The notes under the pieces are model-generated. The model did not search any database. It saw nothing but the letters and a program-made list of their open reading frames with translations, and was not told the origin of the DNA. From Psammoneis japonica (lineage: Eukaryota): 24,642 bases of DNA. The stretch is taken from the NCBI GenBank assembly GCA_008632985.1, contig QPGO01000016.1:62001-86642 (forward strand), in the 5' to 3' direction. This document shows positions 2,216 through 24,642 of this stretch, piece after piece. The position numbers and the translations under genes were made by a program. Every line of letters starts with the position of its first letter. The first letter of the stretch is position 1.

Positions 2216-3118
2216 GGTTGTTATTTCGATTGGTTGTAGGTCATTCCCAAGTAGTGCGATTTCGATCGAAACTGTTGTGTTGCATTGAAGTTTGTGAAAG
2301 AAGTGTAAAGTGCGCAAATCGAGATTTCAGACGTGCGTGTGCAAGCATGATTCAGCATTCATTCACCGTAGCACGACTGATGATGGCACATCATGTTGTT
2401 TATTCAGACGCGACTCCACGTTTTCAAACGTGTGTATTCGTCCGCAATGTGGGCACGCTTTTCACACTGCTTCAGCATGCGATGCACGTGGTGTGCTGTG
2501 TCGTGAAAATTCACGCCAATCTCCGACGACTATCCAACGCATCCGCATCCGCCGATTTGTACAAAGAAACATTCTACCATCGACAAGGTGAGTGCAGATA
2601 GACTGATGAAGACTTATTGGACATCCTCAATCGAACATCCTGTGCTCAGTGCAAACTCTCCATTCTGGACAGTGCCAATTTATTGACGGGCGCAGTCGCA
2701 TCCGATGCCATGGCCGCCATCTTGGGAGTCTGCTTTCTGCTTCTGCCTTATTGTGCACGCACACTTCTACCGTATGCTGCCTACACCAATACGGACTACG
2801 GACGTGCGCACTGCTCGTGAATCATTTATCATCCATCCCCCGTGCGGTCCCTGGTCTGTGGAAATGGCGGGTTGCTGCTGAATGACGGGATGGTGCGAGT
2901 CCAACTCTCGATGCAGCTTTCATTGATCAGAGGGCTTAGCACTGGCTCAGCAACAAGAAAAGGATCTTGCCGTCCACATTTCCGGGTCATTCGAAAGAAC
3001 ATAAAAGATGGTTTGCTTGCTGCTCTAGCTGGCTGGCAGCAGCAAAGCAGAAACTGCACCATGACCAAGGACGAGGCAGAATGCTTGCAAGAGGCAACCA
3101 CTGTTGAAAGGAGAAATC

Positions 3119-4765
3119 TCAGCCAATGAAGCATTGCAGTTCATTTTGCTCATTGTGTGAGTGTTTGCCATTGCAGGGCCACACATCGAACTCGATGCTT
3201 GCCTGATGATTCTTGTGGATGGCGTTGCAACATTTGCACACGTCCCCGATGCTGACAACAGAACAGTCGAGGTTTCCATCTCCACAGCCACTGTTCTCAT
3301 GATGCCACAAGTCAAACTTGAGTGGCCCAGCACCGCTTTCCACAAGAGAATCAAAGTCCTGCGGTGACACACAATTTCCATTTTGAAGCTTGGATGCATT
3401 GATGAATGACAGATTGCCACACACTCATCTCGCCATTCCAAGATCCACACTCAGCACCAGAGTGTGCCAGTGAGCAGCCATTGAAACACCACATTCACAT
3501 GGAGCAGCAATGTCCTTTTCTGCTTGGTGTTCCTGATCATGACCATTTGCGAACATTGCCCAGCCACCATCTTGAACACCAATGTCCAATGCTTGGCCAC
3601 AGCAGACAGCGGATCAGCAGCAGCTCCAACATCCCACATGGGAGGATTGATGGGATGGCAGCCATTTTGAGCAAGACCTGCATTCTTGTGTTCCTCACAA
3701 GAAGCTCAAACTGCAGATGTGACTGTTGCAATGGAAGAGTCGCAGTTGGGGAGGACAGGGAGTTCAATGGTGGGATTGGGTGCAGAAGGCTTGGGAGTGT
3801 TGTTGTCATTGCATCCAGGAAAGTCGCAGCATCCCAAGCCAGCTTGCATCCATTTGGCATCACACATGGCAATGAGGGCATTGCAGAATGCTTGACATTC
3901 CATGGAATCTCCAAAGTGGAAGAAGTGGTGGCCATTGATCACATTGCCACTCATCTTGCAAAAGCACACATCATCAAATGCGAGACTTGTTCCTTGAGAG
4001 ATGAATGGGTCCGACTCGGCCTTGCATGTGCCAATCATTGCATTGGCACAGTGTTTTTCTTGGTGCAAAGGAAGATGTTTTGCAACTTCAATGAGGGGTG
4101 CTTCAAATGCAGAGTCAGGATCGGCATCGCGACAACTGGCATCACCAACTGTGAATTCGGTGACCCCGACATCACTGCATTCCTTGTCACAAACCTTGCA
4201 GATGACTTTACCTTTGTTGTCCTTGTCCATGTCAAGACAAGTTTCACCCATGATGTGCTGCATGTCAAAAGACATGTCAAAGCCACAGTTGTGCTGGAGC
4301 AAATCATTGTCCTCCAACGCGTCAATGAGAAGTTGCAAGTCAACAGCCTTGGATTTGGCGGGGCAAGAGAATGCCAAGTCATCAAAGGAGTCAAAACAGG
4401 CTGATGCAGTCACAGTTGTGCTGCAGCTGTCTCCTTCAATGCATCCAAGATGACAAGCCGCGTGTCAAGTCATGTTGGTCATGTTGACTTCAAACTTGGG
4501 ATTGGCAGCGAATGATGGTTCACAAGCTTTTGCACTTCCTTTTGCAAGACCAGTGCACTTGAGACAGGGCTTCTTGGGCTTGAGCACTCAAAAGGTGATC
4601 CAATGGATGGAACATGATGAGAGAGAAGTTTGTTTGTGAGTGAGCTGTGGCAAGCCACTTCATTCTCACTCTTGTCCAAGCATCGTCCAAGGACACTTTC
4701 GTTGATGCCTTGAGCAAAGGAAGCATCATTGTGGTTGCCAACACAAAGATGGTGGAGATCTTCAT
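3119..4765 (-). pseudogene. Decayed gene for a secreted, acidic, Cys-containing protein (family not recognised)
   Basis: Signal-peptide-like start MKISTIFVLATTMMLPLLKA at 4765, followed by collinear minus-strand fragments 3706-4413 and 3119-3424 with protein-like Asp/Glu-rich composition. These are interrupted by stops and frameshifts and contain no Tyr. Confidence 0.45.
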
Positions 4766-6589
4766 GACGCTGCCAAAGTGCTTGTGTTTCATTTCAGTTC
4801 ATGTTTTTTGTGTCATGATAAATGCCTGCAAGTTTGTTGGGTTCTCTTTGCTGTTCTCATTGCATGTTTGCTTCCGCACTTGTTGGTGGCACTCGGCACT
4901 GCTTCACAGTGCTTTGTGGGGTGCGTGGCGACAGCATGCCTTCCTCATGTTTTTTGTTTTTTGTCTCAGCATGCATGATGCATGATGCAAAAAATGGTGA
5001 TGCAGTGGCATCAGCAATCCAATGATGCCACAGAGGGAGAGCACATTTCTGCATGACACATGAGGAAATGGATCTTGGTTTTGATGCACCACATGGAGTG
5101 CCTGAGCACAATTGTCCGGGCAGAGACAAGAATTCTGTGATGAGGTCTCTGAAAGCACTCACTCAATCAAGTCATTCTTGACTGCATGAATGGCATTGGC
5201 GTGTGTCTCCAACAGTTTCATCAAGTTCGCCAAATAAATGACAAGGGTGCAAGAGTCTGTTTTGAAGCTTGGACACTTGCTGTGTCCCTGGAGCACTTTG
5301 CTTCATCCCACCAGCCACCACCACACCAGGTGGCAGTCCTTGGTGCAAGGTTTTGGAGACCTCAAGCACTGCTCAACTTTGTTGAGACTTGAGCAAGGGC
5401 AACTTGAGCAAGGACACCTGCATTGAAACACAATGATGGCTCTCCATGCTGTGAGAATTGCGGCCCCCCACCTTTGTTCATTTTGCTTTGTCAACTCCTT
5501 GCTCATTTTGCAGTTGTTGCCTGCTGGACTCCAAGGTGCAGCAACTTGCATTGCATGCTCAATGAGAAAGCCACTTGAATGATTTTTTCTCTCAGAAGCT
5601 TGAGTCAAAGCCATGCACACCGCTGCTCTAGAGTGGAGCGCAACTCCAAAACCAGTCGATTTGGTGCAGCCATGACCAACAACAACAAAAACTGCTTCAG
5701 TTGCTGGCAGTGTTCCCAGCCGTGTGGTGCAAGATGAGCAGAAGCATTTTAAATGAATTGCTGACATTAACTCAAGATTGGAGTGTGGCCACACCATGCT
5801 CTCCAGTGGCTGAAAAGACTCGCCGATCATTTTGAAGTGTGCCAATTGTCATTGTGGGTTCTGCTGGGTCAAAAAAGAAAAAGTGTGCATGACAGCAGAA
5901 GAAACTGTGGCTGGTGTTGTTGCAATCTGATCTTTGAGCTTGTGCATCTCATGGGTGCATCAACCTTGAAGTTGGATGTGTCCAAGCTCTTTTTGGCCTC
6001 CACTGCTGTGTGGGCACAACTCCACATTGAAACATTGTTCTGATGCTCATTGATTTTCACAACCAATGTTGTCTGCAGCAGTGGCACCTTTCATCTTGAT
6101 TTGTTGTGGCAGGTGCATGCAGAAATTCTTTTTTTTGCATTGGCGCACAGCAGCCAGCAACAAACATTGTCACCCCCCCAAAAAAGGTTCAAGATGAAGC
6201 ATCACAAAAACATCATCAAGATCAGACACAATGACATTTTCTTGCTGAACAGCTTAAATTCTGCCAAGTTCACTTCTGCTCACCTGAGAACTGCTTGCAT
6301 CTCAGAAAAAAAGCTCCCAGTGCAAGAGAATCTGGGATGGAGCCACGCGATTCAGCTCCTGTGTAGAACAGGTTGAGTGAGCTTTTGCATGCACTGTGCC
6401 CGTGGCTGGCAGAGCAAGAGCAGTGGCAAGAGAACTGTGGATTGGCTGAGAGGCAAGAGAGGTGGTCATGAGAAATGGAGTGCTGCATCATTCAGCTTCC
6501 TGTGTTGTCGCTGCTGAGTCACCCAAGAGAGGGAGTTGATGAAACAGCCAAAACACAACTGGCCAACTGGCAGTGTGCATTGCCAAAAC

Positions 6590-8430
6590 AATGCACCAGA
6601 TGAGCCTTGCAACACTCCACCATTGTGTTCCCTGGGTTCCACCAGAGATTGTTGCACTGGTTGGTTGGTTGTGTCATGGTGTTCTTTCTCTGAGGAGACA
6701 GGAGTTTTTCTGCTCTCACTCTGGCACAGCTGAAGTGACTGGCTGGTGAGCACCACTGCATGCTTTTCAAAACTCCACCACCACCCTCAAAGTGTCCTCA
6801 GGTCTTCCCCTGCAGATCTTTGATGCCTTTGGCCTGCAGCTCATGGGTTGGTTGGTTGCATCAAGAGGTGCCCTTTCACTCTGGAGCAGGCAGGAATTTT
6901 CCTCCTCTCATTTTGGCATGAATTGAGTGTCTGGGAGCTGGAGCTGCAACAGACAAGCCTTGCAACACTCCACCACTGTTCTCCAAGTGTTCCCTGGGTT
7001 CCATGGGAGACCTTCAACAATGCCCTCAGAAAGCAGTCATTTGGTTGGTGGGTTGCATCAGGGTGTCCATTCACTCTAGAGCAGTTTGGCAGTTTTTCAG
7101 CTTGTCTCAATCTGGCATGAAGCAAAAGTGACTGGGGGCTGCAACTGCACCAGATGAGCCTTGCTGCACCTGAGCACCAATCTCAAAGTGTTCCCCAGGT
7201 TTCACTGGAGAAATTCAATGCCCTCCAGCCTGCAGTTGTTGGGTTGGTTGGTTGTTGCGCCACCAGGGTGTTCTTTCTCTGAGCAGTTGTTGGGCTTTTC
7301 TGCTCTCACTCTGGCATGCACTCAGTGGTTGGTGGCAGCATGCACACCAGATGGGCCTTGCAACACTCCACTGCCATTCTCACAGTGTTCCCTGGCTTCT
7401 TCTGAAGAGCTTCAGTGCCCTCAGCATGCAGCAGTTGGGTTGGCCAGTTGCATGATGTGTTCTTTTTCTCTGAAGAGTCAGGAATTTCAGCTCTCACCAC
7501 GTCATGGAGTGAGTGACTGGGGGCTGCACTTGCACCAGATGGGCCTTGCAACACTCCACCACCAATCTCACAGTGTTCTCTGAGTTCATGTGAAGACCTT
7601 CAATGCCCTCAGCCTGCAGTTGTTGGGTTGGTTGGCTGCATCAGGGTGTTCTTTCTCTGAAGAGTCAGAAGTTTTTCTGCTCTCACTCTGGCATGACAAC
7701 TGCACCAGATGAGCCTTGCAATGCTCTGCCGCTGTTCTCAAAGTGTTTCCTGGGGTCCACAGGAGACCTTCAATGCCCTCAGTTTGCAGTTGTTGGGTTG
7801 TTTGGTTGCATCAGTGTGACCTGTCACTCTGGACACAGGAGTTTCAGCTCCTCTCACTCTGGCATGGATCAAGCAATTGGTGGCTGCATCAACTGTGCAA
7901 GATCAGCTTTGCAATGCTCGCCACTTTTCTGGGAGCATTCCTTTGGTTCCAAGGGAGCATTTCAATGCCCTCAGCCTGCTTTTGTTGGGTTGTTTGGTTG
8001 CACCAGCATGTCCTTTCACTCTGGAGTTAGGAGCTTCAGCTCTCACTCTGGCATGGACAACTTGGTTGGTGGCTGCAACTGCACCAGATGAGCCTTGCAA
8101 GAGTGCTCCACCTCTTTCTTCAAAGTTTTTTTAGCTCCACAAGAGACCTTTGGTGCCCTCAGTTGCAGTTGTTGGGTTGGCTGGTTGCACAAGGGCCATC
8201 TTTCATTTTGGATGCAGCAGTTTCAGGTCTCACCCTGGTGTGGATCAAGTGATTGGTGGCTGTGACTGCACCAGGCCCAGATGAGCCTTGCAGTGCTCCA
8301 CCACTGTTCTCAAAGTGTTCCCTCAAATCCACAGGAGACCTTCAATGCCCTCAGTCTGCAGTTGTTGGGCTGTTTGGTTGCGTCAGTGTGGTCGTTTCAC
8401 TCTGGAGTCAGGAGCTTCAGCTCTCACTCT
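6590..8430 (+). repeat. Tandem array A: ~10 diverged units of ~170-200 bp
   Basis: Anchor CCAGATGAGCCTTGCAA-like motif recurs near 6597, ~6765 (degenerate), 6950, 7150, 7347, 7535, 7705, 7900, 8084 and 8277. Each is followed by CTCAAAGTGTTCC...CTTCAATGCCCTCAG...GTTGTTGGGTTG...CACTCTGG. Confidence 0.9.
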
Positions 8431-8767
8431 TGCTTGCTCTTTAAGCTGACAAAAGTGCTTTTCTTGGCACTCTCCTCCTCCCATTGGAGGGTCACCATTG
8501 GGCAGAAGACAGACCTCCCACACATCACAGATGGTCAACCTCTTGAAACAAAGCTTCAATGTTCACACACAATGACTAAAATTGCAACATGCTTCTTCCG
8601 TGAGATGACCACCATGACTCAGAAGAAATGGAGCATCCAAACAAAGAAGGGGCAGACCATCTGGGCTCAACCTCAGACACACTCCTCCACCCCTCCTTGA
8701 TTTGGAGACATTCAGTGAAAGACGAGTCTCACCCTGGACATGTGTGCCACCCAAGTCTGGAACAAGT

Positions 8768-9225
8768 CAACAGCATTGCATGCTCAATCCCAAAGAAGCG
8801 TGGCAAGGTTGTCAATTTCCACAATTTGGCAGCACAAGAAAAAATGGACCTTGCAACCAATCAATTTCAACAAGGAGTGTGCAAACGTCTCAGCATGTGG
8901 GCATGAAGAACTTTGCTGATCGCAACAACAAAGGACATGAGAGTGTGAGTCATGTGCCAAATCTTGTCCCATGCCTCCCAAAGGAAACCACTGATGATTT
9001 GGTTGTGGCTCTGCTTGCCATGAAACATGTGCATGGCAGGAGATTGACAAAGGCAATGAGCAGTGCAATGAATGTGCAATCACAATGGGGGCAATGGCAT
9101 CAGCAAAGACAGATTGGTGACAACAGTGTTTGTTTCACCAAAAGTTGAAATTGTGTGGTGAGCAAGATGGCCATTCATTGTTGAGGCTGGCACCATTCTT
9201 TGTGAATGTGCAGAGAGACTGTGCC
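8768..9225 (-). pseudogene. Hypermutated paralog of the 5' region and upstream sequence of the gene at 15282-17518
   Basis: Aligns by eye with 17197-17662. GCTCAATCCCAAAGAAG..GTCAATTTCCACAATTTGG matches GCTCGATCCCAAAGAAG..GTCAATTTCCATAATTCGG, and TTGAAATTGTGTGGTGA is shared. Confidence 0.85.
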
Positions 9226-9493
9226 AACCACAAAAACCCATGGAATGCATTCAGTCACTTGCAGGCTCTGGGCAGAAACAATCAAAGGCCGAGACTGATG
9301 TGAAATGTGTCCACAATGAACATTGGCCATTTCAGAGCAATGTTCTCTGCAGGTGCAATGAAGTTGAGAAATTCAAGGTTGCTTCCACAGAGCCCAGCAT
9401 TCCACTTGCTGCTGTGATGTGTGAAACACTCAAGTGCACTTTCCCATGTCACACTGGGCTGCACTCAAAGTCCAAGCTCATGCATCAATCTGA

Positions 9494-10400
9494 GTGGGGG
9501 AGACTGAGGTTTGTCATGCAGTCAAATCTTGGAACACAGGCACAGACGGGCTTGGCATCGAGGAGTTCCACAAGCTTTTTGGTGCCCACACTTGCTCCTG
9601 GCAGCAGAATCACCTGGTGGAGACCAACAACCTTGGCCATGACACTCTTTTCAGGATCAAGAAAGGCAAGGATGGATCTTTGACATCAAAGCTCATTGTT
9701 TTTCACATTGAGCAGGCTTTTGACTTTGTGGCACAGCACCATGGACACACAGGTGGTCATCTCAAGTTGGGTCACACACTCAATGACATGAAGAAGAAAA
9801 GTTTTGCAATGTCGCAGAGATGCTGGTTTCTCACTTGACCTTTGCCCCACTTGCAGCAGCAAGGTGCAGCCATCTGTGGCAAGAGCTCAAGGTGCTTGAG
9901 TCCCTGCCATGAGATCATGAGCTCCTGGAGTTTCCAAGACCATTTCCAGAATGACTGGATGGGTTGCCAAAAAAACTCACACCAGTTTTGCCATGGGACC
10001 CTGACCCCCCAACCATGAAGTGGCCTCATGGCTTCAAAAGATTGCTGCACGAGATTGATCTGAACTGCAGGTTGCTGAGGAGTTTTTTGCCACACTCACT
10101 CTTTGACCAGCTGCTGCTTTGTCAGCCACACAGACAAGAACAAGAAGGAGTTCACAGCAGAGCAAGTGACCAAAGACATCCAGGAGCTCAGCCCGTGCTT
10201 CAGCACTGTCCAGGTGAGGCACCAGGGGTCATCTGTCAAGCACTCCAACTGTGTCCAGTCAAAAACAGCCATTGCTTTGCCAGTGAAAGAGCAGCACTGC
10301 AATGACATCTCTCAATGCAACAACCGACAAAGGCAAAAATGAGTGCTCATCTTAATTTCATGTGTTTCACATGGAACCCAACGAGCTTCTGACCACTGCT
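9494..10400 (+). mobile_element. Degenerate Ginger/KRBA2-SCAND3-like DDE integrase (transposase) remnant
   Basis: Across frameshifts: HHCC zinc finger (FDFVAQHHGHTGGH ~9720-9760; LDLCPTC ~9834-9854), first catalytic-Asp region SWSFQDHFQNDW (~9923-9958, cf. F(R)D(R)FQxD), MKW/LMASKDCCTRL (cf. KW..KDH.T), second Asp HTDKNKKEFTA (~10127-10160, cf. HTDNGKEF), and RHQGSSVK (~10217-10240, cf. QGSVE). Confidence 0.7.
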
Positions 10401-11414
10401 CCTCTCTCACAAAGCTGTCAACTCACCAAGAATGTTGCTGAGCACTGTGTCATCATTGGAGGGGGCTACAAGAGGAAGATGATCCTGGCAGGTGAGGTGA
10501 CTGAGGAAGAGATTTTGGAGTCCCCAGTGCAGAGGTTGGCCAAGGGCATGTGGCTCCTCCTGGAGCTGCCATCATCAACCATCTGTCTCCTGCTTCAGAG
10601 ACAAGTGCTGTTGATGGGGACTTCAAGGCAGAAGGCCCTGAGCTGCAATCCAACACAGTGGGCCCACATGCTGGTGCAACAAGCAGTGCCCTTGCTTTGT
10701 TCTCTCTAACAAAGCAAAGTGCTGGTGACACATTGACGCCAGCCAACATCAGAAGCTGTGGTGCTGCCAAAAGAGGCCCATGTGTCCAAGGAGATGAAAC
10801 AGGGCAGCAGCATGGCACCACAGACAATTCCTTCAAAGAAGAGGAAAGTGGGCATCGTGGAAAAGCCAACCAAGTCAATGCAAAATAAAGAGCAAAATCC
10901 AATAAGTCCAGAGCTGATGGCAAAGCATGGCAGCAGCAGCAGCAGCCAGCCATTGAATGGAGCCAGAGACGTCTTCGTCTGCCTGCATGCCGCACCGGCA
11001 CCGGGCACCGGTGTCAGTATTTTTTTCGGCATGACGATGACAAAGCTCGCCGGATTGTGATCATCACATTAAGTCGACATTTTGCATTGGCGTGTAAAAA
11101 GGAACCTTTTTCGTGGTACGTTGAGTGTTGTTGATCTTCTCAGAAAAAGCATTTGATTACAACAAAGTATGCTTTTGATCTGCGACGCATACTTCTAATT
11201 CTACTTTTCATCTGTTTTTACGTTGGTTCGCGACGTGGTTTGTACCAATATGAAGTTGGGCTCCATGCGCTCGAACTACACTCCTTCCAATCACACTTCG
11301 GCATCAGGCCTCAGACCGGCGGACGCATTGTGCCTTATAACATGAGATTCAAGATGTTCCGCAATCAAGGTTTCTCGTACAATCATTTGTTCATTCCTGT
11401 TGCGCCATTCGCCA

Positions 11415-11990: not shown

Positions 11991-12641
11991 GGTGCTCAGC
12001 TTGTCTATTTGGAGAGCTTCTCTGTCCACAAAAGGACTTGCAGTGGGCCCATCACAATATCCGGATGCTTATGATGTACGGGTAACTCTCGTATTCCCTG
12101 AAGAGAGCATGGTTTGTGTCTGTGGGTTGTTTCTGACTCCGTTCCCTATACAGGGACATCGCTTGTACATGGAGGACAACTATTTGCTACGTCATGGGTG
12201 GCTTCTCCTCCAGCCTAGTCACCATATTATTGTCCAAAGCCTTTTTGTCAGTTTCTTTGACTCTGACAGCAAGGATGGTTACGGTCGCAGTAGGGCCTGT
12301 TACATGCAATTGTATGTTCACCGTTGAACTCATTGTGGTGCTGTAATGGAAGATGATACAGTGACGGCGTCTCCTGAAAACATTCGTCCTCCAGAAGAAG
12401 TCGTTGAGCGCCGCATTCAAGCAAATGGAGTGGACGAAGAGTAAGAGAAAGATGACGAGAAGACAAATAGCGTGCCGTCGTTTTGGAAATGCTGGGGGAC
12501 TTGCCATCTGCCGGTGAGTATGCACTTGCAAGCGTTCGACCACATTGCTTCTTGTTCTCTTATATGCACTGTGTTTCGTTTTATTGATATCAAAGCTCCT
12601 GAGAAAATTGTGTTTGTTTGCAAATATTGAATCCAGCGACG

Positions 12642-14287
12642 GACTACCGGAACATGCTGGTTGGGGCCGTTCATGGATGCGCTGTGTGATTCTTCAATTT
12701 TGCCGGGTCGGTTGTTACTGCCCCATGGACTTTTTGGCCGCGGATGGTGCTATGCAGGTTGCTCTTTTTGTCAGAGCTTTTCCATCTCGCCCAAGTTGTT
12801 GGGTTTCGTCGAGGATATTGTACGCATGTCTCTGGATCTTGGGTGAATACTCGCATACGGAGGAAACCGATGTGGAGGCCTTTGAAACTACTTCCATCAG
12901 TTAGGTCCGACCCCATCCTTGATCACCAAGGAAGAGAATCATGAAGAGAAGCACGAAGGAGGAGAGGTCCCAAAACGATTTCTAAGAACGTTGTGTCTGT
13001 CGACGTTACTTATGCGACCCAAACCGTCTACTCCGAAGCCTTCTGCCGGACGAGTCGGATAATACTCCTCATTTGCGCAAGATGGCGATTGGTGGCGACG
13101 TCTTTTCTTGGGAACCATTCTAGCGTCCTGCCTGACCAAGTTGTTTTTGTGGGCTATGGATCAGCCTCAAATGGTTGCATTGGCGATTAAGAAAATGACG
13201 TCCGATACGCTGCTTATCATGTGCGGCGAAGTCAGAATATCCGAGGCCAGCGTTTCAGGTCAGCGTCCCGCTGTGGCTGATTGTTCGGAACGCATTACAC
13301 TATGCTGCCGTGCGCTATTGGGCTCCAAGGCTTGTATTTTACTCAAGGATACTCTCCTGAATGATCGCAAAGTAACGTTTGCCCAGTTTCTCAAGACGCT
13401 CAGGGACAAAGAAACCACAGATGCTTCGGCCGACGACGAGGACGACACAGGCATACTGGCCACGGCGCAGCTTGACGACTTGATCCACTTTCGTCAGCTG
13501 TATTCCATGGCTGTTCAGGGTGGTGATGCCGACTTTGATGGCGGAGACGATTTGGAACGTGCCACTGGGTATGCCGGTGCCAACGATTTGCTTAGTTCCG
13601 AACTCAATCATGTCTACCAACTCAGTGGGTTTGCGGATAATGTCTACGCGGAGGCCTTTGTCACGGTCCATGATTATGACATTGTTTTGGAGATTCTGGT
13701 CATCAATCGTACTCCCAACACACTAGTCAACTTTACGGTGGAGCTTGCCACGATGGGTGACATGAAAATCGTCGAACGCCCGCAGTCTCAAAATATTGGC
13801 CTTCTCGATCAGATCACCGTCCGAGCCTCCATCAAGGTCTCCTCCACCGAGTCGGGGCACAACTTCGGCACCATTGTCTACAAAGACACAGCGACATGAG
13901 AGAAGGGATACATCAATCTCAATGGTATTCACATGGACATTATGGGTTACACCCCCCCCGGCAACTTGTACCGACGAAGCCTTTCGATCCACCAGAGCGT
14001 GCCCGTGTGGGATCAGTCCTTATGCGTACCTTTAGCGCATTGGTGCATAATGTCTATTTGCTGATACAACTCGAGTTTCGCAGTCTTTGAACCACCAACT
14101 AACACACTCGTGCTTTTTTTGTTCTTGTAGTGTCTTTGGCGAAGACGCCCTCGTACATGTTTCGGTCGAGAAGGAGGACGACAATGACGGAAAGTTGGCG
14201 GGGTACATACGGATTCGCTCCAAGACACAAGGGATTGCTCTTAAATTTGGGAGATCGCATCATCAGCGTTCAGAGATCCATGCCTGA
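12642..14287 (+). pseudogene. COPB1: Coatomer subunit beta (beta-COP) pseudogene: C-terminal half with deletions
   Basis: Recognisable blocks DYRNMLVGAVHGCAV*, MDFL..DGAMQVALFVR, CLWILGEY, TYATQT, DDLIHFRQL, YQLSGFADNVYAEAFVTVHDYDIVLEILVINRT, IKVSSTESG, INLNGIHMDIM, PATCTDEAFRS, SVFGEDAL and GYIRIRSKTQGIAL. In-frame TGA at 12687-12689 and 13897-13899, plus frameshifts and missing segments. Confidence 0.9.
14098..14130 (+). other. Intron 3' end (branch point, pyrimidine tract, acceptor) retained in the beta-COP pseudogene
   Basis: ACTAAC (~14098) ... TTTTTTTGTTCTTGTAG ends at 14130, directly before T-GTC-TTT-GGC (S/VFGEDAL). Confidence 0.65.
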
Positions 14288-15281
14288 AACCAAGCAGTAA
14301 AGCAAATGATCGGGATAAGGAACACCGAGTGTATTTTAAACTAAAAAATACCACTTCTTTAGCATGACACTGCACGAACTAGCCCCACTGTTGTGTATTG
14401 ATCCTACTCTCTAGAGATGCTTCTCTCCCTCGGTTTGATTTCCCGGGCTACTACTAGGGTCGATCGCTTCCTTGACGCTAATAGGGAACGGGCCTTACAA
14501 GGAAAAGACCCGTGGAATTGGGCTATGTGGCTCAAGCCTCTACTAGCAATAGATATGGTTTGCGATAACAAGATTATAGGGACCCATTTTAGAACAAGAA
14601 GATTGAAAAGCTACATGAATACGAACATCAAAGTTCTATACATTTATTCTAGACGCCACGGAATGTTATCCTTCGTTTACTACCCCAGAGAGGAGCCGCT
14701 ATCCTTCCTGGCGCATAAACAAAGTCATTCCGTGACGCCAATACTTACCTAGCAATATCCGTTCTTTTACAATTCATTCTCCACGTCCGAAATAAGTAAG
14801 GATTTGGTTCATTGACTACCGCGGGTCTTGAACAAATACAGAGTTGTCGTTTCGCATTGAAGCACCAATCATGCCTGGTACACATTTTGTTCCGGAAAAC
14901 ATAAGTCGCGGGGCGGGACCCACTGTTACTTGAACCTTGGTACTTCAAAAAAGACTGACTGCCGCATCGTTTCAAGTCGGGTTGTCGAACCGGGGTATAG
15001 GGTGTATTTCTATGTTGACAAAATAAAGATGAAAAGCAACGTCAGTAAACAAATCTCGAATGAAAAGAAAAATAGACACGAAATCGACTTACATTGGGGG
15101 TGCATTCGAATGTAACGTAACACAACGAACGCACCCCATGGTATTGAATTGCACGACAAACTCGTGCAATGTTGGCGAGTCTTTGATGCGCACAAAAGCT
15201 GTATTGTACCGTGACATGGAATCGAGAGATGCCCCCATGCATGCTCGATTTCCTAGGGTACAGAACAAGCAGTTAATGAGT

Positions 15282-17518
15282 CTAGCGGCGACTCATGATC
15301 CTTGCGGATCTACGCACGACACGCCCAGTGTTGGACGAAAGAAAGAGACTGCCAGTGGCTTGACGGAGCCTAGGCGAGCGTCTCAATGGGACAGGATGGA
15401 CTTTTTCCTCCTTGTTTCTCACAACTGTAGCAAAAGGAACAACACCCTCCTCCACCACTGGATCATCGTCGGCAGCCATATCCAGAACGTCCAATGCATC
15501 GTCAGGCTCCTCGGCTACTACTCCAAGAACGACTTCCTCTTCATCGTATGCAGTAATTGCAGGATCGTTTATGGTGTCAGCAACAGCAGGTTCCTCAATG
15601 ACAGGAGCGGGAATGATTGCCTCTCCGTCGATTGTTGCCTCGTTCATATCAACTGCAGGATCGTCCAAGGCTTCATCGTCAGGAACCATATCCAGAACGT
15701 CCAACGCATCGTCAGGCTCCTCGGCTACTACTCCAAGAACGACTTCCTCTTCATCGTATGCAGTAATTGCAGGATCGTTTATGGTGTCAGCAACAGCAGG
15801 TTCCTCAATGACAGGAGCGGGAATGATTGCCTCTCCGTCGATTGTTGCCTCGTTCATATCAACTGCAGGATCGTCCAAGGCTTCATCGTCAGGAACCATA
15901 TCCAGAACGTCCAACGCATCGTCAGGCTCCTCGGCTACTACTCCAAGAACGACTTCCTCTTCATCGTATGCAGTAATTGCAGGATCGTTTATGGTGTCAG
16001 CAACAGCAGGTTCCTCAATGACAGGAGCGGGAATGATTGCCTCTCCGTCAATTGTTGCATCGTTCATATCCACTGCAGGATCGTCCAAGGCTTCATCGTC
16101 AGCAGCCATATCCAGAACGTCCAACGCAGGCTCCTCGGCTACTACTCCAAGAACGACTTCCTCTTCATCGTATGCAGTAATTGCAGGATCGTTTATGGTG
16201 TCAGCAACAGCAGGTTCCTCAACGACAGGAGCGGGAATGATTGCCTCTCCGTCGATTGTTGCATCGTTCATATCCACTGCAGGATCGTCCAAGGCTTCAA
16301 CGACAGGCTCCTCTTCTACAGCAACAGGAACGCCCATCTCCGCATCGTCTGGTGCGTCGTCAACAGTCACAGTAGGTTCGTTCAAGGCTTCCCAAGGCTC
16401 TTCAACAACATCAGGAACTACTTCCTCCACAGCATTTAGATTGTTGTCCGTGTCCTCAGCCGGTTCCATATCCGAAATATCCGAGGCATCGTCAGCAATG
16501 GGGTTAATGTCCGTAGCCTCAGCGGGTCCAACGGCCGCTGTAGTCCGTACCCAGCCATGCCAATGATCACACCAAAGATCAGAGTCCCAGTAATGAATAC
16601 TTTCTTCCTGACCCGCATCAAATTCGAGCATCGCCACAGCCAACTGCTCATCATTCAACACGGGTATCACACGGGTGTAACGTGCGCGTCGAAGAACGCG
16701 TTTGGCAGGCACACGGGTTGGATTGGGAGGAGCGTCACCAACGCAATGGTTCTTAAGCATCATTTGGTCAGGTTTCCACCTGACATGCCTTTCTACTGGA
16801 ACAGCAAGAGCCTCGGCCGGTTCCATGGCCGCTTGAGTCCGCACCCAGCCACGCCAGTGATCATACCTTGGATCCGCATGACACTCACGAATGTATCGGT
16901 CTTGTTTCCGGTCAAACTCAACCAGCGCTGCGGCCAATCTCTGATCATTCAATACGGGTATCATATGGGTGTAGCGAGGGATTCGAAGAATTCTTGGAGC
17001 AGTCACGCCGGTTGGATTGGGAGGAGCGTCACCAACGTAATGGTTCTTTAGCATCATTCGGTCGGGTCTCCATTTAACAAGACCGCCACCAAATAGTTTT
17101 GCTTCAAGAGCAGCAGCCACGGGAACAGAAACCGCAAGGGAACGTAGAGGGCATTATACATGGTCCATACAACCACTGCAACCGCGAGAGTAGCCGCAAC
17201 CGCATCGCACGCTCGATCCCAAAGAAGAGTCGACAGGTCGTCAATTTCCATAATTCGGCGGTACAAGAAATAGACAATCAACTTCAACGAGGAGTATATG
17301 AAGATCACAGCATATAAAGCGAGGAGAGCTGTACAGACTCCTACAGCGAAGGACGCCAGTTCTTCAATCATGCATCGGATCCCGTCCATTGCAACGCTCG
17401 AGAATATCCAAAGTTCCCAAAGAAACCCGCTGACGATTCGGCCGTGGTTCTGCTTACCGTGAAATACGCGTAGCAGAAGATTCATAAAGAGAACGAGTAG
17501 TGCAATATATGCAATCAT
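15282..17518 (-). CDS. Probable single frameshifted gene: N-terminal hydrophobic/TM region (17054-17518), duplicated ~98-aa domain, four acidic 70-aa repeats and a basic RRSxR tail (15282-17120)
   Basis: The 154-aa hydrophobic ORF overlaps the 612-aa ORF. The latter has only a GTG start with a TAA just upstream (~17155), so one indel would fuse them. C-terminus is LRRSPRL...VRRSARI. Family not recognised. Confidence 0.55.
15463..16299 (-). repeat. Coding tandem repeat, 4 x 210 bp, near-identical
   Basis: TCCAGAACGTCCAA recurs at 15481, 15691, 15901 and 16111. The last copy on + has a 6-bp deletion. The frame is preserved (70-aa acidic unit). Confidence 0.95.
16515..17077 (-). repeat. Older internal duplication, 2 x ~294 bp
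   Basis: GATTGGGAGGAGCGTCACCAACG occurs at 16721 and 17015. The protein repeats W(R/K)PD.MMLKNH.VGDAPPNPT...IPVLND...DHW.GWVRT. Confidence 0.9.
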
Positions 17519-17767
17519 AATGGGGGTAGTGGTATCAATAAAGATAGATTGGTAATAACAGTGTTGGTTTCAATGCAAGCAAAACTTGAAATTGTGTGGT
17601 GATCGTGACGGTCGCTCGTTGTTGTGGCTGGTAGCATTCGTGAATGCGTAGAAACTGTACTGGAAAAGCCCGTAGAGAAGCCGACCGTCAGTCACGCTTT
17701 TCAAGTTTTGACGGGAAGTTGCGGCACGTTTGCATTCGGTTGCTCGTAGGCTCTACACTGTAGCTAG

Positions 17768-19719
17768 CAGCAGGAAGAAACGAAAATCAGAGGTCATCAA
17801 AGCATTCCAAGAGATGCCTGTGGCCCATGGAAATGTTCTGAAACACAGGGAGAGGCAACACACCGGCCTTGAGCGCCTTGGAGCTGATGTCTTTGGCCAC
17901 ATTGGCAAGAACCCATCCCATGCACAAAGTCAAAGGTGTGCTGCAACAAGAGGCAAGGTGTGCTGGGCTTGATGCACTTGTCTCCCACCACCTCAGCAAA
18001 CAACCCAGGTCATCTGCACACAACTCTGCCTTTGATGCAGCTGGCACTTGCTGTCAAAGTGGCTGTGCAGAAATGTGCAAAATGTGGGTGAGACTCATTG
18101 CCAAGTTTGAGCCCACTGCGGCAAGAGAGGGAGACCCTTGCAAGTCAGAACTTTGGAGGTCTCATGACCTGTCCACCCCCTGAGCTGTGGGGCAACAACA
18201 AAGTTTAGAGTGCCAGTGATTTGTTTTTGTGCATGGATCAGACCCAAGCATTTGACACGGATCAAGTGATTGGAGGCTGCAAGTGCAGCAGATGAGCCTT
18301 GCAATGCTCCGCCACTGCTCTCAAAGTGTTCCTTGGGTTGTTCCAAGGCAAACTTCATCGCCCCAAGCCCTCAGTTGTTCAGTTGGTTGGGCGGTTGCAT
18401 CAAGGCCCTCTTTTGCTTGGACTCAGCAGCTTCGGGTCTCACTCACTCTGGAGTGGGTTGAGTGACTCTGGCGGCTGCAACTGCACCAGACAAGCCCTTG
18501 CAACACTCCACTGCCATTCTCAAAGTGTTCCCTGGTGCCCACCAGAGTCCCTCAATGCCCTCAGCCTGCTTTTGTTGTGTTTTTTGGTTGCATCAGTGTG
18601 TCCATTCACACTCTGGAGTCAGGAGTTTCAGCTTTTTCACTCTGTCGTGGATCAAGTGATTGGTGGTTGTGACTGCACCAGGCCCAGATGAGCCTTGCAA
18701 TGCTCCGCCACCATTCTCAAAGTGTTCCCTGGGGTCCACAGGAGACCTTCAATGCCCTCAGTTTGCAGTTGTTGGGTTGTTTGGTTGCATCAGTGTGTCC
18801 GCTGACTCTGGAGTCAGGAGCTTCAGTGCTCACTCTGGCGCGGTGGTGGATCAAGTGATTGGTGGCTGCAACTGCACCAGACGAGCCTTGCAATGCTCTG
18901 CCACTGTTCTCAAAGTGTTCCCTTGGGTCCACAGGAGACCTTCTCAATGCCCTCAGTCTGCATCTGTTGGGTTGTTTGGCTGCATCAGTGTGCCCTCTGA
19001 CTCTGGAGTCAGGAGCCCCCCAGAGCTCTCTCTCTCTCTCTGGCATGGATCAAGTGATTGGAGGCTGCAAACACAGCAGATGAGCCTTCCAATGCTCCGC
19101 CACTGTTCTCAAAGCATTCCTTTGGTTCCAAGAGAGCACTTCAATGCCCCCAGCCCTCAGTTGTTTGGCTGGTTGCGCCAGGCGCCAGGGTTCTTTCTCA
19201 CTTTGGACTCAGCAGCTTCAGGTCTCACTCTGTCATGGATCAAGTGATTGGTGGCTGTGACTGCACCAGGCTCAGATGAGCCTTGCAATGCTCCGCCACT
19301 GTTCTCAAACTGTTCCCTGGGGTCCACAGGAGACCTTCAATGCCCTCAGTTTGCAGCTGCTGGGTTGTTTGGTTGCACCAGCCACCAGCCACCAGCCAGT
19401 GTGTCAATTGACTCTGGAGTCAGGAGTTTCAGCTCTCACCACTCTGGCACGGATCAAGTGATTGGAGGCTGCAAATGCAGCAGATGAGCCTTGCAATGCT
19501 CTGCTGCTGTTCTCAAAGTGTTCCTTGGGTTGTTCCAAGGGAGCACTTCAATGCCGCTGTGTTCCAAGAAGGAATCAGGAACCTTGAAGGGGGGGGGTTG
19601 GAGGCGGAGAAGAACGATTTCTTGTGTCATCATCCGAACAAACGCATCAACACATCTCACTTCGACAAACTGCTGTTGCCCACAGCGTCCACTCTTCTCT
19701 CTTCTTTTGCAAGCTCCCT
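17768..19719. other. TpA-depleted hypermutated domain 2
   Basis: Only one TA seen (TTAG at 18206) in ~1.95 kb, whereas both flanks contain normal TA. CpG is reduced but partly retained. Confidence 0.9.
18258..19555 (+). repeat. Tandem array B: ~7 units of ~190-215 bp, same family and orientation as array A
   Basis: GATCAAGTGATTGG(A/T)GG anchor at ~18260, (18460 degenerate), 18650, 18849, 19048, 19238 and 19452. Each is followed by a GATGAGCCTTGCAATGCTCC...TCAAAGTGTTCC-like motif. Confidence 0.92.
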
Positions 19720-19732
19720 TTACCATTAAAAA

Positions 19733-20143
19733 ATGAGTCTCAATAACATATCCAGCTCTCTCATTACCCCCACGCTTGCGTCCTTTGCAGCGTGCCAAGT
19801 TACTGGGTTTCTTTGGTACGGACCCTTGTTTGGAAAGCTCTGGATGAAAAAGATGAAAGAGGATGATCCTACGTTTGATGTTCACGGCTCGACTCCAGTG
19901 CTTGGAGCCGCTGTCACGTGGTTGACGTCGTCTGCCATGTTTTCATGTTTGGTATCCATGACGGGTGCTGCCAAAGGTGCGGAACTTGTTTCGCTCGCGG
20001 GAACGGCGTGGCTGGGCTTTACCGTGCCCGGTCACGTCTTTGCCGTCCTATTTGAAGGCCGAAACGTGACTGTCAATGTTTTAGGCTCAGCCTACATTCT
20101 TACCTCCCATCTTATAATGGCTGGTGTTCATTATTTGCTTTAG
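19733..20143 (+). CDS. DUF1761-like small multi-pass membrane protein (136 aa)
   Basis: GFLWYGPLFGKLWMK motif typical of DUF1761, four hydrophobic segments, ATG preceded by AAAAA, normal dinucleotide content. Confidence 0.75.
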   Translation: MSLNNISSSLITPTLASFAACQVTGFLWYGPLFGKLWMKKMKEDDPTFDVHGSTPVLGAAVTWLTSSAMFSCLVSMTGAAKGAELVSLAGTAWLGFTVPGHVFAVLFEGRNVTVNVLGSAYILTSHLIMAGVHYLL

Positions 20144-20965: not shown

Positions 20966-22783
20966 ATGAGACAATTTTATGCTTATACCGTATTCTTGAT
21001 TGCTGTGAAATTACTACCATCGCTGTTAGCCTTTTGTCCTCCCAAACAACAACGTCAGACGCATTCCTTTGCTCTTTTTGACTCGCTGCAGAAAACAGCA
21101 CAACAACTCGACGCTTTGAAGAAATTGAATCCCCGAACTCCAACCGAAAATCATGAGGATGCTCTGTACAGACAATACATGCTTCAGTCGGCTAATTCAC
21201 TCAAACAGGAATTGTCGTCTCGTGGGTTACCCGTGAAAGGTCGAAAGCCGGATCTCGCAAAACGGCTTGTTGATTCTGATTTGCAAACACCACCGACACT
21301 TGAAAATGAAAACGAATCGATACCAACGCCCGATTTGAATACTGAAGTCGCTACTCCGCTCTCTCGTTTCGCTGGATTAAAATTATCCCACACGGCTGGG
21401 TTAGCTCTGGCCCAAGCCAATTTCGTAAGCCCTAGTCCCATTCAAGCCGCCGCTATTCCCCTGCTTGCAAACGGAGAATCGGTCATTTTGCACGCCGAAA
21501 CGGGTTCTGGAAAAACACTGGCCTATCTACTTCCCATGACAGAACAGCTATGGCAAGAAGATAATAATGATGAGTCTTTTTTTGTGGTCATGACACCGAC
21601 TCGGGAATTAGCGGCTCAAGTGGCGGGGATTGCCACGGTTCTGGCACCACCAGGATCGGTGCGACTCGTGTCTCATCCCACCAATCTATTGAAAAATCCA
21701 AACAAGGACCGTGGTGAGAATCCGGAAATGGGTGGACGAAGTATAGAAGAATATGACGGTCCACCGCGATTGGTTGTCGGCAGTGCCAAGAGTATCATGG
21801 TGTCTCTCTATGGCGACAAGAAGCTCCCGGCACCACCCACCTCCAAACCCGAGGCCATGACGTTTTTGCAAAACACAAGGACGGTCGTCATGGACGAAGT
21901 TGATCGGTTGCTCAACATTCAAAAGTCACGTGCGGCATCCCAAAAGAAACTACACGAAAAGCCAGCAGCCATCGTCACATCAGCCGTGACACGATTAACG
22001 CTGGGTCAGTGTCAAGTGGTATGTGCCAGCGCGACCGTGGGTCGGCCGCTGCGACGAGAAGTGGCACGAGTCTTGGGATTACCGGCACAAGATTGTCCAC
22101 AAGTCATTCGAGGAAACGAAATTATGAAACAACCAAAACAACAACAGCAAGGATCGAGTACGAGTCGTGCTGTAACCATTCCTAACTCTGTTGAGAATTT
22201 TGTTCTTGCCGTGGACGGATCGACTGTTGGAAAGCTATTGACGTCGGCCTTTTATGTCATAAAGTCGCTACCCAAGGATTCATCGAAACAAATATTGTTG
22301 GTATTGACACGGGGTTGTGGTGTCAATACTCAAAACGCCATTGGTGCACTGAGGCATTTTGGCTGTAAACCCAATCCACAGTCCTTGTTGGATGCGCTCG
22401 AAGCGGATGGAACCGACAATATGATTGAAGTGCATCGTCAAGTGTTGGGTGCCACTGGTGTGGGTGAGTCATATTTTAGCAACAACGGACAGTCTGAAGC
22501 TACAGACGGTAATGACACCAAGGAATACTTACTCGTGACAGGAGAAGATACCGTTCGGGGATTGCATTTGGATGGGCTTGACATGGTGATTGTTGTGGGA
22601 CGTCCCAATGGACCAGATGAGTACACTCATATTGCTGGAAGAACTGGGCGGGCTGGACGGCGTGGCAAAGTTGTTACTGTGGTTTCAGAAGACAATGCGG
22701 CGGCTTTGAAGTCGTGGGAACGCATGCTGAATGTGCGATTTGAACAACTTGACATGGACAATGTAGCAACAAGCTTGACATGA
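20966..22783 (+). CDS. DEAD-box (DEVD) RNA helicase with SAP domain and bipartite plastid-targeting presequence (605 aa)
   Basis: Q motif FVSPSPIQ, AETGSGKT, PTRELAAQ, DEVD, SAT, VRGLH and HIAGRTGRAG. SAP-like LKQELSSRGLPVKGRKPDLAKRL. The first ATG at 20966 gives the signal peptide MRQFYAYTVFLIAVKLLPSLLA-F. Confidence 0.92.
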   Translation: MRQFYAYTVFLIAVKLLPSLLAFCPPKQQRQTHSFALFDSLQKTAQQLDALKKLNPRTPTENHEDALYRQYMLQSANSLKQELSSRGLPVKGRKPDLAKRLVDSDLQTPPTLENENESIPTPDLNTEVATPLSRFAGLKLSHTAGLALAQANFVSPSPIQAAAIPLLANGESVILHAETGSGKTLAYLLPMTEQLWQEDNNDESFFVVMTPTRELAAQVAGIATVLAPPGSVRLVSHPTNLLKNPNKDRGENPEMGGRSIEEYDGPPRLVVGSAKSIMVSLYGDKKLPAPPTSKPEAMTFLQNTRTVVMDEVDRLLNIQKSRAASQKKLHEKPAAIVTSAVTRLTLGQCQVVCASATVGRPLRREVARVLGLPAQDCPQVIRGNEIMKQPKQQQQGSSTSRAVTIPNSVENFVLAVDGSTVGKLLTSAFYVIKSLPKDSSKQILLVLTRGCGVNTQNAIGALRHFGCKPNPQSLLDALEADGTDNMIEVHRQVLGATGVGESYFSNNGQSEATDGNDTKEYLLVTGEDTVRGLHLDGLDMVIVVGRPNGPDEYTHIAGRTGRAGRRGKVVTVVSEDNAAALKSWERMLNVRFEQLDMDNVATSLT

Positions 22784-23098
22784 AACTTTATTAATGATAT
22801 GAACCAAAAGTCTCGCTTTGATGTTGGAGCTTTATTTGCTGGAGAGAGCGTGTGTGCCGGCTAATAATCGCGCTGATGCTGATATATCACTGTTGAGTTT
22901 CAATGACGACTTTTTTCAATACCATGTGTCGTTAGTGGATTATGATGTTTGATCGATGAAGAACAGTGCGGGGTGGCAGACGCAACGAATCGCGATTTAG
23001 TTGCTTTCCTCAAACTATACTTGGAAAGTACTCTAAAAAGGAATGGATCCATGTTTGACGTTGGTCCCTGTGTTCGCTCTACCACACTCTTGTGATGG

Positions 23099-23142: not shown

Positions 23143-23311
23143 ACCACAACTGCATAGAGAGCTTTAAGATAGTGAACGATCATGATTTAAATGTTGCACC
23201 ACACTTTCCGCTCGAAGCTAACTGACAACATGTGTCCCCTCGATGCCATTCGAGACTCACTAACGTCTCGATTGCATTCTGTCCCACCTGATGTCTAATG
23301 CTTCCAGGTGC

Positions 23312-24394
23312 TTAAAAGACACCGATTCGAAAGGCGAGCCTGATTTGTTTCAAAGCTGTGACCCAACTTCCAATGGCAGGTTCGGGCACCTCAGCAGCGT
23401 TCTCGGGTTCTTCCCAGGGTTTCAAAACTGGCAGAGAATCTTGCAGAACGTTCATCAAACGCATTGACGTGTCAAACACTTTCTTTCCCTAACATTTTGC
23501 CTTCCACTCAATCGCAGAGCGACTGTCAGACAGAATTGGGTTCAGAAACGAAACCTTTTCGAAAAGAAGGTTCGTCTGAGTCTTCGCTGGCGTAGTCAAG
23601 CGTGTCGACAATTCCAAAACTCTCTTCCCCCAATGTCCAACGCTCGATTTGATCTCAGAGAGATGGCCAGACAAGATTGGGTTCCGAAAAAACAGCAAAA
23701 AATTGTCGCGTTCCTGAAGAACGAGTGCCTGAGTCTGGATTTGCGTGATGACGTTGTTCGAAATTTCGTCTGCAAGTTTCCGCCAAAGCTGAAACGCCGC
23801 CGACTTGACATCCGAAAAGATGCTGTGCGTGTCCGACAAGACGGCCAACTGGATCTCCAAAAATGTCGTGAACGTGTCTTGGAGCACGACTGACTTGGTC
23901 TCAACCGTGCTGTTGGGTGTGGTGTTGTGAAAGAGTTGCTGGAGGCTGCTGTTGGAGTCGCCATTGTTGTCCTGAACAAAATGTTCACAGACACAATGCT
24001 CGTTGGCGTCTTCTGCTGGTGCAATCATGGGCATGGCATTGCGCAGGAGGCCTTGGACGCGACTCGGAGACTTGTCGCCATCGTCAAAATGAGCGCAAAA
24101 GCTGGAAATGAGGATGGCGTTTTCGAAGGGAACAGTGTTGGGAGCGCCATTGCTGGTGATGTCATGGCAGCAGCTGGAGGTGGTGTCAACATCTGAGCAA
24201 CGGGTGTTGTCCAAAAACTTGCACGGGAGCTCTTGGTCAATCATGGCGATGCTGTCGGTCACCACGGTTGCCTCGATCGACAAGGCGCTGACGCCGCGCT
24301 TTGCCGCATCAACAAACGAGGCAGAGAGAGGGCTGATGATGACACCAGTGCTCATGGCGGCAATGACAGCAAGGACAAAGTTCATGATTTTCAT
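23312..24394 (-). pseudogene. Tyr-free gene relic with a signal-peptide-like N-terminus and one internal stop
   Basis: Starts MKIMNFVLAVIAAMSTGVII at 24394. Internal repeat NPILSGHLSEIKSSVGHWGKRV versus NPILSDSRSAIEWKAKC*GKKV shows that the TAG at 23489-23491 sits at a Trp position. The frame continues to TAA at 23312-23314. The 377-aa ORF has no Tyr. Confidence 0.55.
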
Positions 24395-24622
24395 GATGGA
24401 CTGTGAGCTGACGAGCAATTCAGAAATTGTGAGAGCACTCAAACAAGAAGAGATTCTGTCTGCAAGGGAGGTGCCGTGGCACAAGACACACAGAAATCTG
24501 CGTGGCGTGGGCCGTTTCTCCATTGCATTTGAGTTGGAAGAAAGTTTCGCGATGGTTGTTTTGTCGCAGATGGTGCACCTGTCGAGCTTGGATGATCGTG
24601 CTGTTCCACGCAGCTGGCACAT
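23595..24622. other. TpA-free, CpG-retaining domain 3
   Basis: No TA seen in ~1.03 kb, and only two more back to 23315, while CG dinucleotides are abundant. Confidence 0.9.
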
Positions 24623-24642
24623 TAATTCTAGAGTGCGAGGCT

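Follow-up and report, generated by a model that had tools for sequence, protein, structure and literature searches.

A candidate TpA-directed hypermutation uncoupled from CpG loss in a stretch of the Psammoneis japonica genome

In Neurospora and other ascomycetes, repeat-induced point mutation (RIP) depends on RID/DIM-2, takes place before meiosis and is confined to duplicated sequence above a threshold of length and identity; it converts CpA to TpA and leaves behind AT-rich relics full of stop codons. To our knowledge, all of the known eukaryotic processes of repeat-directed hypermutation, i.e. RIP, the TCG-context mutation of basidiomycetes and the action of APOBEC enzymes on retroelements, are cytosine deaminations that drive the sequence towards AT, and we know of no TA-directed component of the basidiomycete process. 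Adenine is deaminated to inosine by the ADAR and ADAT2/3 (TadA-type) deaminases, which act on RNA with a preference for a 5' U and leave the genome unchanged. In this paper, we have analysed a stretch of 24,642 nucleotides from Psammoneis japonica (GenBank assembly GCA_008632985.1, contig QPGO01000016.1, positions 62,001 to 86,642; hereafter the window), at the right end of which lies a domain of about 1.3 kb (the focal domain, or domain 3) that carries a long open reading frame (ORF), is almost devoid of the dinucleotide TA and has a normal content of CG. Two further TA-poor domains (domains 1 and 2) lie to its left. The analysis covers this one window, one pair of converted and unconverted paralogues within it, and read evidence from a single sample.

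Hypermutation of transposons in a TCG context has been reported in Microbotryum and other basidiomycetes (PMC3318451, PMC5381629). For diatoms, another source describes methylation of transposable elements by DNMT5a, as well as a RID-related DNMT4 that is encoded by many diatoms and whose function is given there as unknown (PMC9998398). The suppression of UpA and CpG in RNA viruses and cytoplasmic mRNAs is treated in a further source (PMC3829696). In a limited search of open-access full text, TA erasure was not found described for any diatom or other alga, which is no proof of its absence.

In the focal domain, the consecutive TAs at positions 23593 and 24623 enclose a gap of 1030 bp without any TA, in which 39.2 would be expected at the rate seen outside the domains (538 in 14148 bases; Poisson P ~1e-17), and in 2000 mononucleotide shuffles of the focal stretch the TA count averaged 60.0 with a minimum of 38. 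The same gap contains 62 CGs, an observed-to-expected ratio (o/e) of 0.92 compared with 0.97 outside the domains, and the focal stretch is enriched in both TG and CA, with o/e values of 1.60 and 1.41, respectively. An earlier reading of the DNA made from its letters alone (the sequence-only reading) had described about 1 kb here with no TA and dozens of CGs, and this description is borne out, both of the strings that it quoted being found in the stretch. With the o/e values outside the domains taken as the expectation for all three domains, positions 23314-24622 hold 2 TAs against 44.8 expected and 78 CGs against 81.6 expected; the mass balance of the domain is thus 43 TAs missing, an excess of 36 for TG and CA together, and CG unchanged. 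On the + strand the excess is about 25.7 to 30.8 for TG and about 9.3 to 10.1 for CA. The GC content of the domain is 0.51; GC-biased gene conversion was considered as an explanation and ruled out, since AA, AT and TT are not depleted there (o/e 1.38, 0.89 and 1.10, respectively).

The domain is wider than the TA-free gap and abruptly bounded. On its left, TAs occur at 23261, 23296 and 23313, and are then followed by just two over the next 1.3 kb, at 23490 and 23593; on its right, they return at 24623 and 24629. Of the two TAs within the domain, that at 23593 falls on an ACT|ACG codon junction, and the other is part of a TAG stop codon, where it was probably newly made by a later nonsense mutation, judging from the repeat unit described below.

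As claimed before, the domain encodes a mostly open frame of 377 codons without tyrosine (Table 1). Within the TA-free run, which takes in 343 of its codons, this frame has no stop, compared with 5, 6, 16, 9 and 8 stops in the other five frames; the tyrosine content of the ORF is 0%, A and C make up 14% and 39% of its third codon positions, and its three-base periodicity (chi2 75.1) is comparable to that of the helicase (68.7) and coatomer (62.9) genes of the window. The TAG that closes the frame aligns with a TGG codon for tryptophan in the neighbouring unit of an internal repeat, and similarity to this upstream unit at the protein level runs on past the TAG, which makes a secondary nonsense mutation, acquired after the conversion, the probable origin of this stop. 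The same frame then continues to a TAA that coincides exactly with the left edge of the TA-poor domain. Hence the frame, as judged by its own repeat, appears not to be pristine, as it carries one nonsense codon. The two repeat units are identical in 87 of 149 aligned columns, and CA/TG alternations make up 3 of their 28 double differences; one aligned codon reads TGT (Cys) in one unit and CAT (His) in the other, which would fit an ancestral TAT, although this is only a hint. At the other end of the frame, an internal ATG may be the true start, followed by a signal-peptide-like N-terminus, a possibility that we take from a rule of thumb; the product would then possibly be secreted, and the 76 codons upstream of this ATG may be open only through the absence of TA.

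Two properties of the frame bear on the tempo of the change. Conversion of TA to TG or CA never makes an in-frame stop, because TGA can arise in this way only from TAA; therefore, an open frame is expected after conversion, and it is no proof that the gene still works. At the same time, about 43 of the 45 expected TAs were lost, and a 436-codon frame took up one nonsense codon and no frameshift, which means that few other changes have accumulated. We estimate that the TA-specific rate exceeded the background by well over an order of magnitude; given that frame and codon periodicity were preserved, conversion at TA would have been at least tens of times as fast as ordinary substitution. The proposal that the conversion was fast and ran ahead of other decay is therefore upheld by the open frame and its intact three-base periodicity.

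The most direct view of the conversion comes from a pair of paralogous segments, one (8768-9245) in domain 1 and free of TA and CG, and the other (17197-17677) outside the domains and overlapping a membrane-like ORF with 5.8% Tyr. The two are 68% identical, and 83.6% identical in purine/pyrimidine space. None of the 28 TAs of the unconverted copy is kept in the converted one, where they align with CA (14), TG (11) or other dinucleotides (3); likewise, none of the 31 CGs is kept (14 CA, 13 TG and 4 other), and the remaining dinucleotides are kept at 31-80%. Single-transition differences are thus found at 25 of 28 TA sites and 27 of 31 CG sites, with the two strands affected about evenly. At the protein level, a YY pair stands opposite CH, and single tyrosines stand opposite His and Cys. 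As an unconverted control we took a duplicated segment near the N-terminus of an acidic ORF outside the domains (16515-16785 and 16809-17079; 74% identity, 88% in purine/pyrimidine space), which keeps 2 of 7 TAs and 8 of 18 CGs and does not have the pattern of the converted pair. The transitions are therefore confined to domains, affect both strands and are specific for particular dinucleotides, and the comparison supports a mutational origin of the TA-free state of 8768-9245. It had been proposed that TA was converted to TG and CA, which agrees with this pair and with the mass balances; the accompanying expectation that Cys and His codons of the focal gene would align with TA-containing codons of a paralogue held for the domain 1 pair, and the focal gene itself yielded no paralogue.

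The direction from TA to TG or CA is indicated by the fact that all recognisable genes of the window have ordinary TA and CG, and the reverse direction is unlikely, as it would need two opposite transitions aimed at one working gene. No outside homologue of the membrane-like ORF was found among 1263 candidates, nor a Pfam match, so that the pair is not polarised independently. A self-comparison of the window in purine/pyrimidine space returned no second pair of converted and unconverted copies.

Domains 1 and 2, to which the sequence-only reading had also referred, were both recovered from dinucleotide counts (Table 1). Domain 1 has 16-17 TAs in 7.9 kb, a CG o/e of 0.05-0.31 and a TG/CA o/e of 1.5-2.1, with 662 TA and CG missing against an excess of 603 TG and CA; domain 2 has one TA and a CG o/e of 0.2, with 165 missing against an excess of 119. 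The domains begin and end abruptly, within tens of bases: before domain 2, TAs occur at 17747, 17754, 17761 and 17765 and the next one at 18206, and on its right there is none up to 19721, followed by those at 19727, 19744 and 19749. The last 167 bp of domain 2 (19555-19721) are free of TA and have 7 CGs, i.e. CG is restored there. This strip lies directly upstream of a gene for a DUF1761 protein (19730-20140), and the loss of TA extends beyond the loss of CG there. In a map of 300-bp bins, all CG-poor bins were also TA-free or almost so, TA-free bins with normal CG were seen in domain 3, and no bin was CG-poor with TA retained. The loss of TA can thus be separated from that of CG, as had been suggested: neither the focal domain nor the strip has lost its CG along with its TA, and bins of the converse kind do not exist.

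It had further been suggested that domains 3, 2 and 1 (CpG intact, partly lost and mostly lost) may form an age series, which is supported only in part. The nesting of CG loss inside TA loss fits such a series; slow decay of CG fits poorly, as CG-poor domain 1 keeps a frame of 479 codons with only 2 TGA stops. This frame is Cys-rich and periodic (chi2 47.5), its read-through translation has no Pfam match, and it is either the relic of a hypermutated gene or an unusual gene. As it is almost intact within CG-poor sequence, the loss of CG also looks fast, which suggests that the CG-directed change in domain 1 was rapid as well.

Table 1. Coordinates of the domains, reading frames and repeats in the window
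Feature	Position	Strand	Basis or remark
Domain 3 (focal), TA-poor, CG-normal	23315..24622	.	TA positions and dinucleotide counts
Tyr-free orphan ORF, 377 codons (383 with open end)	23489..24622	-	frame and codon-position composition
Internal ATG, then hydrophobic stretch	24392..24394	-	position from sequence
In-frame TAG	23489..23491	-	aligns with TGG (Trp) of neighbouring internal repeat unit
Same frame past TAG, 58 open codons	23312..23488	-	ends in TAA 23312-23314
Internal repeat, two copies of ~141 nt (47 aa), 3' part of frame	23440..23741	-	self-alignment
Domain 1, TA- and CG-poor, TG/CA-rich	3027..10886	.	dinucleotide counts
Relic or unusual ORF in domain 1, 479 codons, 2 TGA stops	3028..4464	-	periodicity
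Tandem satellite, 188-199 bp units, TA-free, CG-poor	6590..8437	+	self-comparison
TA- and CG-free paralogue in domain 1	8768..9245	+	matches 17197-17677
Membrane-like ORF with TA, 171 codons, Tyr 5.8%	17054..17569	-	unconverted counterpart (DNA match 17197-17677, outside domains)
Domain 2, TA-poor, mostly CG-poor	17766..19721	.	dinucleotide counts
Second array of same satellite family, in domain 2	18259..19555	+	self-comparison

Domains 1 and 2 each contain an array of the same tandem satellite, with 18 matches in total, 16 of them near full length, and a period that is not a multiple of three. In an alignment of these 16 units, CA and TG alternate at one site (at least 2 units each) in 12 of 193 column pairs, and the six other combinations of double transitions alternate at 1-5 column pairs. 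Such alternation is expected if each unit resolved an ancestral TA or CG on its own; few sites are involved, and the units cannot be treated as independent observations. A search for the satellite motif in metagenome contigs gave 3 loci, which have normal TA and CG and were rejected as chance matches. Another repeat of the window, a 210-bp tandem repeat at 15463-16307 (4.1 copies, 96% identity), has normal TA and CG. It lies inside the acidic ORF mentioned above, of 623 codons (15282-17153, minus strand), is open on both strands, reaches a very high summed contig depth in both of the sequencing runs considered below, and has escaped TA erasure. With the satellite excepted, positions 2800-11200 contain no inverted repeats or terminal inverted repeats (TIRs) and no direct repeats resembling long terminal repeats (LTRs).

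To examine the composition in read-derived data, contigs of a public run of DNA type (X1; listed as 'DNA?'), in which 69% of the sampled words of the window are present, were aligned to the window. They match 1977 bases of domain 1 at a depth of 63 with 0 differences, and agree with two more pieces to within 1 difference; the composition of domain 1 is therefore present in the reads and not in the assembly alone. X1 contigs also bridge both satellite arrays, which suggests that more copies of the satellite exist elsewhere. Over 23319-24642, the summed contig depth is 1752-1777, compared with 58-63 in the lowest (single-depth) bins. One X1 contig of 429 nt aligns to 23435-23861 with 72 differences and 8 gaps, and thirteen snippets of other copies (265 nt in total) contain no TA. 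The depth therefore appears to reflect a family with diverged copies, which on the left begins where the TA-poor domain does, and the focal domain appears to be one copy, ~1.3 kb long, of a multi-copy, lineage-specific element with an orphan ORF. A second run (X2; kind not stated) covers the ordinary genes and has no contigs over 4643-10645, 17983-19316 and 23986-24642; over 23150-23985 its depth is just 3-5, from which no bearing on expression is drawn. The runs that contain the sequence come from one sample of one study, and no RNA run is found among them.

How does this locus compare with the described systems? It shares with RIP the context-specific transitions of DNA on both strands, the near saturation, and the sharp domains that overlap repeats and contain gene relics, and the paralogue pair differs at its TA and CG sites almost wholly by transitions on both strands (25/28 and 27/31), as RIP would have it. 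However, RIP makes CpA transitions that leave an excess of TpA, while here TA is the substrate: 1030 bp contain none, TG and CA are in excess, the change is from A:T to G:C, the GC content (0.51) has hardly changed, and no in-frame stop can result. In addition, the lineage is that of a stramenopile alga, and some repeats in the window have escaped. The process is thus not RIP, but would resemble a RIP-type process with a new specificity. The basidiomycete mutation in TCG context is similarly RIP-like with a lineage-specific target context, but it is a cytosine deamination, from C to T. Spontaneous decay of CpG by deamination of 5-methylcytosine (5mC) could convert CG to TG and CA in domains 1 and 2, where the CG o/e is well below 1 and a matching excess of TG and CA is found; but it is unable to remove TA, CG is normal in the focal domain (o/e 0.92), and the nearly intact 479-codon frame of domain 1 suggests that CG loss was faster than spontaneous decay. 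The diatom DNMT4 could be relevant to the CG component, though not to that of TA.

The RNA-directed systems offer likenesses of another kind. Reading of A as G after T or U, as after the action of ADAR or ADAT, would fit a change of TA to TG on either strand, but here the change is fixed in DNA, complete and on both strands, with the converted state found in the genomic window and in the contigs of the 'DNA?' run. The suppression of UpA and CpG affects the same two dinucleotides, but it is partial and tied to expressed RNA, whereas the depletion seen here is essentially total and domain-wide, and extends to the non-coding satellite and flanks.

Taken as a whole, we favour, as a probable though by no means assured account, a TA-directed hypermutation of a gene-bearing repeat copy that was uncoupled from CG loss. 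Under this account, near-saturating transitions at TpA on both strands would have changed TA to TG or CA, i.e. A:T to G:C, and the same process together with a change of CG to TG or CA would have reshaped the two further sharply bounded domains. A targeted enzymatic activity directed at silenced or repeated DNA would presumably be responsible; its simplest chemistry would be the deamination of an adenine preceded by T, the product being read as G, and an alternative would be the oxidation of the thymine at TpA, followed by mispairing with G. A separate CG-directed step, by deamination of 5mC or a RID-like activity, would not have reached the focal copy, which after its conversion would have gained at least one ordinary nonsense mutation. 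We put forward more tentatively, as a possibility rather than a probability, the wider proposal that the alga has a heritable TpA hypermutation at the DNA level, carried out by an adenine-directed deaminase or a thymine-modifying enzyme, and separate from, and apparently earlier or more efficient than, the CG step.

Several observations weigh against this account. The paralogue pair, which is the single direct piece of evidence, is 480 bp long, lies in domain 1, is old (~22% other divergence) and has no runs of changes on one strand (26 runs against 28.7 expected, P 0.27), and the satellite statistics beside it rest on few sites. Paralogues, alleles and homologues of the focal domain itself were sought and none was obtained, so that its ancestral TAs are inferred and not seen. 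Furthermore, the excess in the focal ORF lies mainly at synonymous NNC|ANN junctions (70 CA, or 62 per kb, compared with 28-49 per kb in two genes), and this concentration could reflect selection during a slower, selection-filtered process, or a strand bias. As for repeats as the trigger, the TA-free domains do have a high summed contig depth; however, the high-depth region of 14.6-17.7 kb and the 96%-identical 210-bp tandem repeat keep their TAs, and 4643-5976 is TA-free at single depth; repetition is therefore not sufficient, and not clearly necessary. The depth values themselves are totals over every contig with a likeness of at least 80% and do not give copy numbers, and the assembly may have been built from this very run.

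Some of these points are shared by a slow, context-dependent bias in silent chromatin, in which modification of TpA (as oxidised T or modified A) and 5mC at CpG would cause a long drift to TG and CA. The nesting of CG loss in TA loss, the extension of the domains over satellites and single-depth sequence beyond recognisable repeats, the age of the converted paralogue and the lack of strand runs in the pair would all be in keeping with such a drift. We nevertheless regard it as unlikely, because the focal domain has lost about 43 of 45 TAs with a 343-codon frame still open and a gene-like periodicity, the relic frame of 479 codons in domain 1 has acquired only 2 stops, and the edges are sharp to tens of bases. 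The domains could instead be genes and repeats that selection keeps free of TA, and in places of CG, for example to escape a nuclease that cuts at TA, transposons that target TA or RNA decay directed at UA; the focal ORF would then be a working gene without tyrosine. The open and periodic frame of this ORF, the concentration of the TG/CA excess at synonymous codon junctions and the position of the original stop TAA exactly at the domain edge are what such selection might produce. This view, which ranks below the drift in our estimation, has to face the equal absence of TA from the non-coding flanks and from the satellite of 188-199 bp, a period not divisible by three; moreover, the focal frame shows a nonsense codon when set against its own repeat, one converted stretch has a paralogue with normal TA and tyrosine, the ordinary genes of the window have a TA o/e of ~0.57, and the focal protein is without relatives or recognisable features.

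Sharp boundaries, domains that appear to be multi-copy, and the asymmetry of the focal excess, in which TG exceeds CA on the + strand, would also be expected if the RNA or cDNA of a mobile element had been hyper-edited before insertion, either from A to I with a 5' U preference or by a cDNA deaminase. To this we assign a low probability, given that the outcomes are mixed in the paralogue pair (14 CA and 11 TG; 14 CA and 13 TG) without strand runs, that the tandem satellite is converted too, and that no reverse transcriptase, integrase or transposase domain is found in 38 frames of domains 1 and 2 or in the focal ORF, and no LTR or TIR in 2800-11200. Finally, the pattern is unusually clean, and the runs with the sequence are all from one sample and study, perhaps the source of the assembly, which might point to an artefact that heavily modified DNA caused during sequencing, base calling or assembly. 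Such an artefact seems very improbable in view of the X1 k-mer contigs, which agree with domain 1 over 1977 bases at a depth of 63 without a single difference; in addition, the residual TAs and CGs, the ordinary divergence among satellite units and the coherent coding frame are unlike a systematic miscall.

Should the wider proposal of a heritable TpA hypermutation be correct, it would be the first RIP-like process of genome defence or domain marking that acts by A:T to G:C changes; it would be self-limiting, ending once TA is exhausted, and it would rewrite proteins, from Tyr to Cys or His, instead of truncating them. The erasure of TpA to TG and CA would represent a mutational chemistry new to nuclear genomes, and would imply a natural editor of DNA, directed at adenine or thymine and acting on double strands or coupled to transcription, which would be relevant to base editing. 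It would also add a layer of genome defence or chromatin marking in diatoms, an ecologically major group. As only TGA stops remain in TA-free domains, such domains inflate ORFs and can mislead gene prediction.

Searches for relatives of the focal ORF were uniformly negative. Word-indexed searches gave no homologue at E<=1e-3 among 4218 candidates of near length and none among 273 candidates of shorter length; a full phmmer search against 1.84 billion representatives gave 0 matches, and Pfam gave 0 matches at E<=0.01 and 0 at E<=1. The 40 pattern matches in viral contigs and 108 in metagenome contigs included no relative, the Atlas gave no usable match (recognition 1266), and an AlphaFold2 model made without an alignment had a mean predicted local distance difference test score (pLDDT) of 33.5 and was unusable. 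When domains 1 and 2 were read from stop to stop, their 38 frames gave as the sole match above the cut-off the DUF1761 protein, which is outside domain 2, and neither these frames nor the focal ORF contained reverse transcriptase, integrase or transposase domains.

The rest of the window codes for the C-terminal region of a coatomer beta subunit, a DEAD-box helicase with a SAP domain, the DUF1761 protein, and a protein with a weak VWA match; the nearest Atlas clusters of the helicase are mostly from Bacillariophyta. Rfam and tRNA searches of the window gave 0 matches each. Weak Pfam matches on the plus-strand frame 15060-16439 (MTaX1 and zinc ribbons, with 0 qualifying stretches) were rejected as artefacts of a low-complexity repeat. 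At many sites of ordinary genes within 11300-17500 and 22500-23050, most of the contig depth disagrees with the letter of the window, and does so in both runs. At position 13454, for instance, other letters make up a depth of 542.7 out of 611.3 in X1 and the full depth of 548.2 in X2, and at position 17494 all 15 of 15 X1 contigs differ from the window, which suggests that several haplotypes, homeologues or strains are present in the sample.

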